From Escherichia coli (lineage in GTDB: Bacteria; Pseudomonadota; Gammaproteobacteria; Enterobacterales; Enterobacteriaceae), in NCBI RefSeq assembly GCF_965641715.1, contig NZ_OZ282453.1: a DNA stretch of 64,000 bases; one strand, given 5' to 3'. Below, piece by piece: positions 60,001-64,000 of the stretch. The position numbers were made by a program. Within the stretch, counting starts at the first letter, position 1, and each line of letters starts with the position of its first letter.

Positions 60001-63000
60001 GTAAATCAAGCCGCCTCCGGGCGGTTTTTTTGTTGCCATCACCATGGGTTGGCTCATCGTAATGGCAATATCTCCACAAGCGGATAAAGAGGCTCTCAAT
60101 GTTCGATATCTACCAAATCACTATCACCACCACATCGAAATAAACGTTCACCGGCATGATGAATCGGAGCCAGCCTGAAATCGTTAATGGGTTCGAGGCA
60201 CTGGCGACCGAAACGGGCGAGTGGCTGTATTTCGCTCCGGCCGATGTGAAGTGCGTGCAGTTCACGCCAGTACCGGAAGAGCAGACCGAACAGCCAGAAG
60301 AACAAACAACGGAGTAACGAATGAGCAAACCGGACTGGGAGGCCATCGAAACGGCGTACCGGTTTGCTTTATAAATTAAGCCACACGGTTTCCGATAGTT
60401 GCTGGAAGAGGGATCAAAATTTCCCAGAATGGCTGTTGGGAAAACGTAGTTCCAGCCCAGTAATGTTCAATTTGATAGGTATAAACGAGGCAGGAGTTAG
60501 CATTGTTCAAAAGTGCCATATCACCTCTGTGAATTAAATCTTCATCAGCCTCAACTTCATAAATTGGAGAGTGAGGGTTCCTGTATTGCGACCTAAAGGC
60601 GATGGCTCCTTCTAATGTTTCACACGCAAAAATGCATTCATATCTTGATGGTGCGGAAGGCCGCATTGCTCTTCTATAAAACTCTAGCCCCCAATCTATC
60701 GAAAAGTTGATATGTCCTGCTATCGCGTCGGCAGAAAGAAAATAGCCATCGCCATGCTTTGATACTCCGCGTGGGAAAAGACTATTAACCATAACTTGTA
60801 ACTCTAGTGGCTGAATAGATGGGGTGATAGGTCTAACCATCATTCCATGAGAGTAGTAATTACCTGAGTCAACTGTGTAGTAAGTGGTCATAAAATACCC
60901 AAGGAAAAACAATGGCACTCACCGACAAGCAAGAAATGTTCTGTCGCGAGTACCTCATCGATTTAAACGCTACGCAAGCGGCTATTCGGGCGGGGTACAG
61001 CGCAAAGACAGCCAACCGTACTGCGTCCGAAAACATGTCAAAACCTGACATACAATTCAGAATCTCCGAATTGAAAGCGCAACGCAATGACTCTGTTGGA
61101 ATAAATGCAGAATATGTACTTAATCGCCTTATTGAAATCGACCAGATGGATGTGCTTGACATTCTCCTGCAAAACGGTGAGCTGAAACCCATCAAAGACT
61201 GGCCTAAGGTATGGCGCACAACGCTATCAGGAATGGATGTCGTGGAGATGGTATCCGCAGATAGCGCCGCACTTCTGAAGAAAATCAAATGGCCTGATAA
61301 GGTTAAAAATCTTGAATTGCTTGGGCGTCATGTTTCTGTTCAGGCGTTTAAAGACAACGTCAAAAATGAAGTTACTGGCGCTGATGGAGGACCAGTCAGA
61401 ACAGAAATTACCAACTTAACGCCGGAGCAGGCTGCAGAGGCGTATAGAAAAATGATGGGCTAAGTATGCCGTTACCATTTCCCTTCGATTTTAAACATCC
61501 TGATTACCAGATGGTTTTTGAATGGCGGATGGAACGCCTACAGCGCATTCGCCAGAATCCTGAAATATTGCCTGCACTAAAACAGTTTTACCGAACCAAT
61601 CCGGCTCAGTTCATCATCGACTGGGGCATGACAACGGACCCGCGTAATATTGATTATGGCCTGCCGGTGACCATTCCGTTTTTACTCTTCCCTAAGCAGG
61701 AGGAGTGGATCCACTGGATTATGGAACGCTGGGGCAATCGGGAGAATGGTATTACCGAAAAATCCCGTGAAATGGGGCTCAGTTGGACCGCGATCGGACT
61801 GGCCTGCTCGCTTTGTCTCTTCAACAAAGAAATGGTTATCGGTTTCGGCTCCCGTAAAGAGGAATACGTCGACAGCACCGGTGACCCGAAAGCATTGTTC
61901 TGGAAGGCGCGCAAGTTCGTGGAAACACTACCTGTAGAGTTTCGCGGTTCGTGGAGCGAGAAGAAGCACGCGCCATATATGCGTGTTGAGTTTCCTGAAA
62001 CTGGTGCCGTTATCAAAGGCGAGGCTGGCGATAATATTGGTCGTGGTGACCGTACCACGCTTTATCTGGTTGATGAGGCTGCATTCCTTCAGCGTCCTCT
62101 GCTGATTGATGCGGCGTTGTCACAAACGACGCGTTGCCGTATTGACCTGAGTTCAGTTAATGGCATGGCGAACCCGTTCGCTCAGAAGCGTCATGGCGGG
62201 AAGATACCGGTATTCACATTCCACTGGCGGGATGATCCTCGCAAGGATGAAGAGTGGTATCGCAGGGAATGCGAGAAAATCGATAATCCGGTGGTGGTGG
62301 CACAGGAACTTGATCTGAACTACAGCGCATCAGCGGAAGGCGTCCTGATTCCATCCGAATGGGTACAGGCTGCCGTTGATGCGCATATCAAACTGGGGAT
62401 CCAGCCAACAGGCAAACGACTTGGCGCGATGGATGTCGCCGACGAAGGCAGGGACAAAAATGCCTTTTCCACCCGTCATGGCTTCCTCCTGGAGAATGTG
62501 CGGGAATGGTCCGGTGTGGGCAGCGACATTTATCAGACCGTCGAGAAGGTTTTCGGCTTTTGCGAACAGGACAACCTCGAAGAGTTTCGCTTTGACGAGG
62601 ACGGGCTGGGCGCTGGCGTTCGCGGCGATGCACGCGCTATCAACGAACTGCGTAACGCTGCGCGTCGACCGTCAATACTCGCCACACCGTTTCGAGGTAG
62701 TGGCGCGGTATTTGATCCGGATGATGAAGCTGTTCGCGGGGACAACGGGCAAGCCGCACGTCTGAACAAGGACTTCTTCGCTAACGCCAAAGCCCAGAGC
62801 TGGTGGCGGTTACGTAAACTTTTCCAGAACACCTACCGTGCCGTGGTTGAGGGCATGGCCTACAACCCGGACGAAATCATCTCAATCAGCAGCGCCATGG
62901 CGAGCAAAGACAAACTCATCATCGAGCTGTCGCAGCCGACCTACTCCATTAACGGCGTGGGGAAAATCGTTGTTGATAAACAGCCTGACGGCACCAAGTC

Positions 63001-64000
63001 GCCGAACCTCGCCGACTCGGTGATGATCAGCTACGCGCCAATGAATTCAGCCCTGAACATCTGGGAGCTGCTAGGGAGACAGGCCTGATGGCACGAAACA
63101 AGCAAGCCTCTCAGCGAACGGCACAGGCCACCGCTGATGGCTATGAGAACTTTGTCGCCCGCGTGGGGATGCAGACGCCTAACCAGCACTCAGCATCGAC
63201 CTACCGGGCTAACTTCACCAGCCGCAACCGCATGCTGGTGGAATGGTCCTATCGTTCGTCCTGGATCATCGGCGAAGCGGTCGACGCTATCCCGGACGAT
63301 ATGACCCGGAAAGGCATTCGCATCACTTCGGAGATTGACGCCAAAGACCGTGGCACCCTGGAAGCGCAGCTGGATGAGTTGCAGATCTGGGAGGCGCTGA
63401 ACGACGTGCTGAAATGGTCGCGTCTCTACGGCGGCGCGGTTGGCTTCATCATGATTGAGGGGCAGGCACCAATGACCCCGTTGCGGCTCGAAACCATTGG
63501 AGAAGGCAAGTTTAAGGGCATTCTCCCGCTCGACCGCTGGATGATTAACCCGGTGCTGACCCGCCGCATTAAAGAGATGGGGCCGGACCTGGGTAAACCT
63601 GAGTTTTACGACGTGGTGACCACTGCAACGGGCATCCCGGCCTGGCGCATCCATCACAGCCGCCTGATTCGCTTCGACGGGGTGACGCTGCCATTCCAGC
63701 AGAAGATGACCGAAAACGAATGGGGAATGTCGGTTGTAGAGCGTATCTGGGATCGGCTTACTGCGTTCGACAGCGCCACTGTCGGCGCGGCGCAGCTGGT
63801 CTACAAAGCGCATTTGCGTACCTACAGCGTGGAGAAGCTACGCGAGCTTATCGCACTTGGTGGTCCTGCGTATGAAGCGTTGCTGAAGAATATCGACCTG
63901 ATTCGACAGTTCCAGAGCAATGAAGGCATGACGCTCATGGACTCGCGGGATAAGTTTGAAACCCATCAGTACAGCTTCAGTGGTCTGGATGACATCCTTT

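Follow-up and report, generated by a model that had tools for sequence, protein, structure and literature searches.

The phages considered here as a reference group are those related to Salmonella phage SEN34. SEN34, type phage of genus Brunovirus, has been described as a myovirus whose regulation and replication genes are lambda-like, and it is placed in a separate lambda cluster, 'temperate 26' of Casjens and Grose; it has been induced with mitomycin C and imaged (PMC5261728). Among other phages, the literature describes 9NA as a pac headful packager, P22, Sf6, SPP1 and T4 as headful packagers, and lambda as a cos phage with 5' ends. Pac headful packaging by 9NA itself has experimental support, and this mode is also cited for the 9NA-like phages as a group. 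Here, we compare with these systems the packaging genes of a prophage in Escherichia coli (RefSeq assembly GCF_965641715.1, contig NZ_OZ282453.1), of which a stretch of 64 000 nucleotides was analysed (the window; all positions refer to it). The genes for the small terminase (TerS), large terminase (TerL) and portal protein lie at 60912-64000, and we are fairly confident that the late operon of a SEN34-like lambdoid myovirus prophage begins with this region, which is unrelated to the Nu1, A and B genes of lambda. The module thus falls within a group already described, that of the SEN34-like lambdoid myoviruses, and its packaging proteins belong to recognised families, that is, Terminase_2, a 9NA/BcepB1A clade of TerL proteins and the DUF1073 portals.

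The three genes form a compact rightward operon, as seen in the open reading frame (ORF) listing and in the sequence itself. The TerS gene (60912-61463, + strand) encodes 183 amino acids and matches Pfam Terminase_2 (PF03592) over model positions 1-139 of 141 (E = 8.8e-40; 137 bits against a cutoff of 26.1). Two bases separate it from the TerL gene (61466-63088, + strand; 540 amino acids), and the ATG of the portal gene (63088, + strand) shares one base with the TerL stop codon. The portal gene continues beyond the window end at 64000, leaving the N-terminal 304 of 488 amino acids in view, and these match Phage_portal_3 (DUF1073; 2.8e-69) and phrog_146 (8.4e-109). For the full-length, 488-residue portal protein of E. 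coli strain TL20, structural matches were obtained to the portals of cyanophage Pam3 (2.2e-36) and of Pseudomonas phage E217 (9.5e-13), both of which have been solved. TerL gave no match to Pfam (E≤10) or NCBIfam, and its identity was therefore drawn from PHROGs, where it matches phrog_2, 'terminase large subunit' (6.6e-33), from sequence and fold matches in the PDB, and from phage homologues. The ORF positions and the 540-residue length of TerL agree with the original prediction for this DNA, which had been made by reading the sequence.

The same prediction held that the three proteins do not resemble lambda Nu1, A or B, and this proved correct. In BLASTP comparisons of the window TerS, TerL and portal with lambda Nu1, A, W and B, the best match had E = 0.09 and the rest ranged up to 100. 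The best match, between TerS and Nu1, covers 54 residues and is out of register. TerL against gpA gave E = 0.68 in this four-protein lambda set and E = 4.0 in a 16-sequence set, and the portal against lambda B gave E = 2.7. The lambda proteins fall into the Pfam families Phage_Nu1 (PF07471; 2.5e-100 for Nu1), GpA_ATPase with GpA_nuclease, and Phage_portal_2, none of which is matched by the window proteins; for TerL this holds even at E≤10. A profile of the TerL family, built from 17 homologues, aligned to gpA with an hhalign probability of only 0.1-0.2%. No clear alignment to Nu1, A or B was thus obtained by any of these comparisons. The claim that no lambda cos precedes the small terminase also stood, since the cosN sequence GGGCGGCGACCT, with up to two mismatches, was not found in 60000-60950, and BLASTN with 600 bp of lambda (cos ± 300 bp) returned only chance matches of 11-20 nt (E≥0.38). 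Elsewhere in the window, cosN gave five matches against 3.55 expected, which is chance level. The module shows none of the defining features of the lambda Nu1/A/B/cos system.

The original prediction had further assigned the late region to a different lineage, and the comparisons identify that lineage as SEN34-like. By megablast against phage genomes, the stretch that begins near the 3' end of TerS or at the start of the TerL gene and reaches the window end is 95.7% identical to four coliphages (vB_EcoM-606R2, 689R2, 611R5 and 683R1), 92% identical to Citrobacter phage Omnitron, 88% to SEN34 and 82.5% to Hafnia phage yong1. The order of the late genes is the same in SEN34, 611R5 and the E. coli strains TL20 and CRECJHTL34: TerS, TerL, DUF1073 portal, Mu-F-like protein, DUF2213 protein, capsid, sheath, tube and baseplate. 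The window is chromosomal DNA of E. coli; its positions 60000-64000 are 100% identical to TL20 and CRECJHTL34, and the last 24 kb of the window are 99.73% identical to TL20. The latter value was taken from BLAST, a position-by-position count of mismatches being invalid owing to an indel. The TL20 prophage is ∼40 kb long and starts at torI, which in K-12 encodes the excisionase of prophage KplE1. After its portal gene come genes for a head protein of the Mu-F/SPP1-gp7 type, a DUF2213 protein, capsid, sheath (DUF3383), tube (DUF3277), tape measure, baseplate and tail fibres.

TerL is 98.5% identical to its counterpart in 611R5 and 96% identical to that of SEN34. Outside this group, BLASTP and phmmer found its closest relatives to be BcepB1A gp33 (50.7% identity over the full length) and 9NA gp11 (39%, E = 5e-130, about 95% of the length), while the PB1-like TerL (35%) and Sf6 gp2 (32%) were similar in the nuclease domain only. 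Lambda A and the large terminases of HK97, T7, SPP1 and P22 gave E≥2.4 or no match, and P2 gpP was marginal (E = 0.027). These sequences belonged to a reference set comprising P22, Sf6, ES18, SPP1, T4, Mu, 9NA, T7, lambda, P2, HK97, BcepB1A and a PB1-like phage. ES18 and Mu are headful packagers, T7 has direct terminal repeats, P2 has cos ends of the 5' type and HK97 has cos ends of the 3' type. In a neighbour-joining tree (200 bootstraps), the window TerL formed a clade with those of 611R5, SEN34, BcepB1A and 9NA in 100% of replicates. The deep branches of the tree, including one that makes lambda A a neighbour (32%), were rejected as unresolved, and only the 100% clade and domain-wise hhalign comparisons were used. 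In the latter, the ATPase domain was nearest to Mu gp28 (95% probability) and T4 gp17 (52%), and the nuclease domain to the PB1-like TerL (99.9%) and Sf6 gp2 (99.8%).

An AlphaFold2 model of TerL (predicted local distance difference test score 77) has the two-domain fold, with an N-terminal ATPase and a C-terminal RNase-H-like nuclease. The top PDB match of this model in Foldseek was Sf6 gp2 (5.6e-27), over 461 columns that span both domains; T4 gp17 was matched at 1e-15, and the nuclease domains of E217 and Sf6 TerL gave template modelling (TM) scores of 0.84-0.86. The catalytic motifs are intact, with a P-loop that begins at K99 (KSREMGLS), a Walker B motif with the catalytic Glu (LYLVD203-E204) and nuclease residues D323/D326, D377/D379 and D517. 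Across 17 TerL homologues, K99, R101, G104, D203, E204, D323, D326 and D517 are invariant, and D377 and D379 are nearly so. The P-loop is of a variant form, KSRxxGx[ST], in which the lysine precedes Ser-Arg and the canonical GK[ST] lysine is missing, and this form is common to Mu gp28, P2 gpP and 9NA. The family is abundant, with more than 6381 homologues at E≤1e-10 and 6945 sequences in a single 90%-identity cluster. It is often annotated as 'hypothetical protein', as in TL20, BL21 and CRECJHTL34, because no Pfam or NCBIfam model matched it here.

In TerS, residues 3-76, the helix-turn-helix (HTH) region, align to the TerS structure of Bacillus phage SF6 (3zqp; 2.9e-11). Compared with the TerS of 611R5, identity is 58% over amino acids 1-60 and 45% over amino acids 61-120, then rises to 98% over amino acids 121-183. 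At the DNA level, homology to 611R5 restarts at 61275, which is TerS codon 122, whereas homology to SEN34 restarts only at 61425, in the last 13 TerS codons. The SEN34 TerS is of another type, without a Terminase_2 match, yet has the same end, L-T-x-[ED]-Q-A-A-E-x-Y-[RK]-K-M-M-G. TerS proteins that differ elsewhere but work with the same TerL therefore have their last 13-63 residues in common. Upstream, a relic of 17 codons corresponds to the start of a SEN34-type TerS gene (MSKPDWEAIETAYRFAL and a stop codon; 60321-60374, + strand), in which positions 60327-60362 are 94.4% identical to nucleotides 7-42 of the SEN34 TerS gene; the SEN34 protein begins MAKPDWEAIETAYRAG. The cryptic prophage of BL21 carries the same relic at 97% identity (positions 9007-9043 of the BL21 stretch examined).

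Judged from these alignments, the TerS gene is a natural chimera, with an N-terminal DNA-binding region and core from another lineage and a C-terminal tail that is common to the TerS partners of this TerL. The simplest reading is that recombination swapped the DNA-recognition and core parts of an ancestral SEN34-type TerS and kept the C-terminal tail that fits the resident TerL. On this reading, the DNA-recognition part was displaced by a reverse-strand accessory gene together with a TerS of the Terminase_2 type, and all that is left of the old gene is its first 14 codons, now dead, and its last 13. In P22 and lambda, it is the C-terminus of TerS that docks TerL, and retention of the tail fits this role; we infer that the conserved tail is the TerL-docking element.

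The packaging mode of the module was then considered. By analogy with its relatives, the module probably uses pac-type headful packaging that would start within or close to the TerS gene and run rightward, because every TerL relative of known mechanism (9NA, Sf6, Mu and T4) is headful and the TerS belongs to the SPP1/SF6 type; the Mu-F/SPP1-gp7-like head protein encoded after the portal also speaks for this mode. The pac site there would be recognised by the TerS ring, TerL would make the first cut at it and pump DNA rightwards through the DUF1073 portal, and, once the head was full, a second TerL cut would be made without sequence specificity. The resulting chromosomes would be circularly permuted and terminally redundant. 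The original prediction had proposed a phylogeny of the large terminase as a means to predict the mechanism, and the clade with 9NA at 100% support favours headful over cos packaging, by inference rather than by demonstration.

Several points weigh against the headful proposal. The deeper nodes of the neighbour-joining tree are unresolved, with supports of 4-48%, and TerL phylogeny is a good but not an infallible predictor of packaging type. A cos phage, P2, has the same KSRxxGx[ST] form of P-loop in its gpP. Promoter, terminator and repeat scans of 59600-61600 were at or near the expectation from shuffled sequence and gave no convincing repeat and no candidate pac or other cos signal; the sole feature retained from them was a terminator-like hairpin at 60008-60027. 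The authors of the SEN34 study state that its packaging sequences were not identified (PMC5261728), and our literature search found no mapping of virion ends for SEN34-like phages or close relatives. That search returned no paper for 606R2 and its relatives, no relevant paper for yong1 and, for Brunovirus, mentions in surveys only; for BcepB1A, the nearest non-enteric relative (51%), it found no packaging data.

One alternative is a cos mechanism with cohesive ends of a non-lambda type, in which a specific cut near the TerS gene would give unit-length, non-permuted genomes. The original prediction had left this open, and the failure of the SEN34 study to identify packaging signals and the P-loop shared with P2 gpP are compatible with it, as is a weak hhalign link between the nuclease domain and P2 gpP (7.8%). 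Cohesive ends have also been suggested for phage 7-7-1, which shares a few genes with BcepB1A, but TerL is not among the genes on which that link rests, and homology of the TerL proteins does not follow from it. The large terminases of the cos phages themselves, lambda A, HK97 gp2 and P2 P, show no significant similarity to the window TerL (BLASTP E≥0.027; hhalign ≤7.8%), whereas the relatives with measured ends (9NA and Sf6) and the remote relatives of the ATPase domain (Mu and T4) are all headful, and the HTH of TerS is of the SPP1/SF6 pac-phage type. We therefore regard a cos mechanism as unlikely. That the three proteins are highly diverged members of the Nu1/A/B families that the original prediction did not recognise has a negligible probability. 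The ATPase and nuclease fold is common to all tailed-phage TerL proteins, so that they and gpA must share an ancestor at a very remote point, and the neighbour-joining tree places lambda A beside the clade, with a bootstrap of only 32%. Set against this are the BLASTP E-values of 0.09-100, the lack of any match to a lambda-family Pfam model, the hhalign probability of 0.1-0.2% and the strong matches to other families.

It is also possible that no packaging occurs at all, the genes being part of a decaying cryptic prophage. Signs of decay are present nearby and in relatives: a pseudogene (60100-60318) and the TerS relic lie just upstream, in BL21 only a remnant is left after deletion, its portal gene cut short, the invertase gene of TL20 is truncated and the tape-measure gene of CRECJHTL34 is split. 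In the window, however, the TerS, TerL and portal ORFs are intact and tightly coupled and the catalytic residues are conserved. TL20 has a complete late operon with an intact tape-measure gene in its ∼40 kb prophage, and phages 96-98% identical in these genes have been recovered as virions (the vB_EcoM records and SEN34). Decay is therefore, in our estimate, improbable, somewhat more so than a non-lambda cos mechanism, and pac-type headful packaging remains the preferred reading.

The junction between lambda-type and SEN34-type DNA is not a single point but a patchwork at 59697-61424, with a G+C content of 43-47% compared with 52-60% in the TerL and portal genes. A small ORF on the + strand encodes 66 amino acids of phrog_31739, without an assigned function, and is followed by the terminator-like hairpin, which has a T-run; together they occupy 59804-60027. 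Next comes the pseudogene of a small phage protein at 60100-60318 (+ strand), annotated in RefSeq with an 'internal stop' (TL20 locus 20100-20318), in which the ORF at 60156-60317 matches phrog_6581 (4.4e-22). In the genome record of Enterobacter phage CobraSix, a related sequence (87% identity) is located at the right end. Between the relic and the TerS gene lies an accessory gene ('moron') on the - strand (60376-60918; 60376-60891 in RefSeq), with a match to phrog_5663 (1.3e-48), a match to Pfam DUF2441 that is under the cutoff (E = 1.1e-3) and a G+C content of 43-45%. PADLOC found no defence match for this DUF2441-like insert, the 66-residue ORF or TerS, and therefore no defence role is claimed for the insert. 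At least 80% of 59700-61300 is present in only 3 of 5426 complete E. coli genomes, so the exact arrangement is rare. The same slot contains unrelated reverse-strand genes in BL21 and in strain 300081, which suggests that it is an insertion hot spot for accessory genes.

Upstream of the patchwork, the early, replication, nin and lysis modules are those of lambda (90-98% DNA identity), in agreement with the original view that the lysis and replication modules are lambda-like. The replication and nin region (54149-57547, + strand) contains O, P, ren, ninB, ninE, ninF and ninG, named in the TL20 annotation as replication protein, P, ren and NinB/E/F/G. By BLASTN to lambda NC_001416, O-P-ren-ninB (54149-56572) is 98.35% identical over 2424 bp, ninE-ninG (56576-57547) is 97.8% identical over 972 bp, and the S-R-Rz lysis cassette (58304-59696, + strand; its annotation names a lambda-family holin, a GH24 endolysin and a lysis protein) is 90.1% identical over 1422 bp. 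Between 57547 and 58304, BLASTN found no match to lambda. This interval holds, on the + strand at 57566-58302, a Q antiterminator gene that is not lambda's and two tRNA genes. The Q gene (57566-58084) encodes 172 amino acids and matches Pfam Phage_antitermQ (1.1e-25); the tRNA genes, identified with ARAGORN between Q and the holin gene, are tRNA-Asn (GTT; 58147-58221) and tRNA-Thr (TGT; 58227-58302). The RefSeq annotations of TL20 and CRECJHTL34 show the tRNA-Asn only, without the tRNA-Thr.

The mosaic nature of the prophage, another part of the original prediction, extends further than had been noted, with breakpoints inside the TerS gene and an early region that is swapped in CRECJHTL34 (NZ_CM192843.1). 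From ninB to the portal gene (56054-64000 of the window), CRECJHTL34 is 99.96% identical to the window. At the same chromosomal site beside torI, it has a P22-like early region, with ERF, Abc anti-RecBCD and a DnaB-like helicase rather than lambda exo/bet/gam/O/P. This difference suggests that the entire early half was exchanged recently. The swapping of whole head-and-tail modules among lambdoid phages is textbook mosaicism, and as such is ordinary and no surprise to a specialist.

The packaging module is widespread, megablast matches to 60000-64000 being present in 451 of the 5426 complete E. coli genomes. In BL21 (NZ_CP053601.1, 753284-756218), a deletion remnant lies between ybhC and ybhB, at the lambda attachment site, and consists of a TerS gene, an intact 540-residue TerL gene and a truncated portal gene. 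The label that the Prokaryotic Genome Annotation Pipeline gives to this shortened DUF1073 portal, 'anti-CBASS protein Acb1 family protein', seems to be a quirk of annotation.

The module is already known from phages in GenBank and from hundreds of E. coli genomes, including that of BL21, and its identification here is of modest value. The abundant TerL family, with no Pfam or NCBIfam match here, marks a gap for annotation pipelines. The TerS chimera and the relic together form a clean natural example of the exchange of a DNA-recognition domain with retention of the TerL-binding tail. Wider significance can be proposed only tentatively and with a low probability. The assignment made here might be the first packaging assignment for the SEN34-like lambdoid myoviruses. 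If packaging is of the pac headful type, this family, with matches in ∼8% of the complete E. coli genomes, would be capable of generalised transduction, a capacity that would then belong to a common prophage type, and, if excision is late, could also be capable of lateral transduction of chromosomal DNA rightward of the prophage. The TerS locus could similarly be a plug-and-play natural experiment, in which unrelated DNA-recognition domains are placed on one conserved 13-residue TerL-docking tail, with a fossil of the displaced gene and a variable slot for accessory genes at the junction.

Of the known systems, lambda offers a parallel in position, as its terminase and gpB genes occupy the same site after S-R-Rz, at the head of the Q-dependent late operon, and have the same general roles. 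The window module differs from it in having no sequence similarity, no cosN or cosB and no gpW-like gene between TerL and the portal, in belonging to other Pfam families and in the packaging strategy predicted for it. The likeness to G1P of SPP1/SF6 lies in the Terminase_2 family and the N-terminal HTH and is recognisable only over ∼75 N-terminal residues of the window TerS, whereas the window TerL is unrelated in sequence to SPP1 G2P (BLASTP E = 2.4; hhalign <1%). For Sf6 gp2 (PDB 4IDH and 5C12) and E217 TerL (PDB 8DKR), the likeness lies in the nuclease domain, which is 32-35% identical to that of the window TerL, with the acidic active-site motifs DxxD, DxD and SPNxAD in alignment. The Sf6 ATPase domain has no detectable similarity (hhalign 0.2%) and a canonical GKS P-loop, and the Sf6 TerS belongs to the Sf6_terminase family. 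9NA is close in its TerL, with a P-loop KSRDYGAT against KSREMGLS in the window, and neither protein is covered by Pfam. It differs in being a virulent siphovirus of 52.9 kb, with capsid and tail genes unrelated to those of the window, and its record has no TerS annotated beside the TerL.

The nearest described relatives remain the 606R2-type phages and SEN34, and even here the early regions are not alike: exo/bet/gam/O/P in the window are truly those of lambda (98%), 611R5 has a DNA polymerase and a helicase, and SEN34 has its own set. SEN34 and 611R5 also differ from the window in the N-terminal two-thirds of TerS, and the window additionally has the relic and the DUF2441-like insert. The ICTV criterion for a genus is ∼70% nucleotide identity over the whole genome, and formal membership of this prophage in Brunovirus is doubtful because its early region is lambda-derived, unlike that of SEN34. 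In the packaging genes, the likeness is close, with 96-98.5% identity for the TerL protein and 88-96% for the DNA from the end of TerS through the portal, and the window prophage has in common with the SEN34/611R5 group the joining of lambdoid regulation and lysis genes to a contractile tail.

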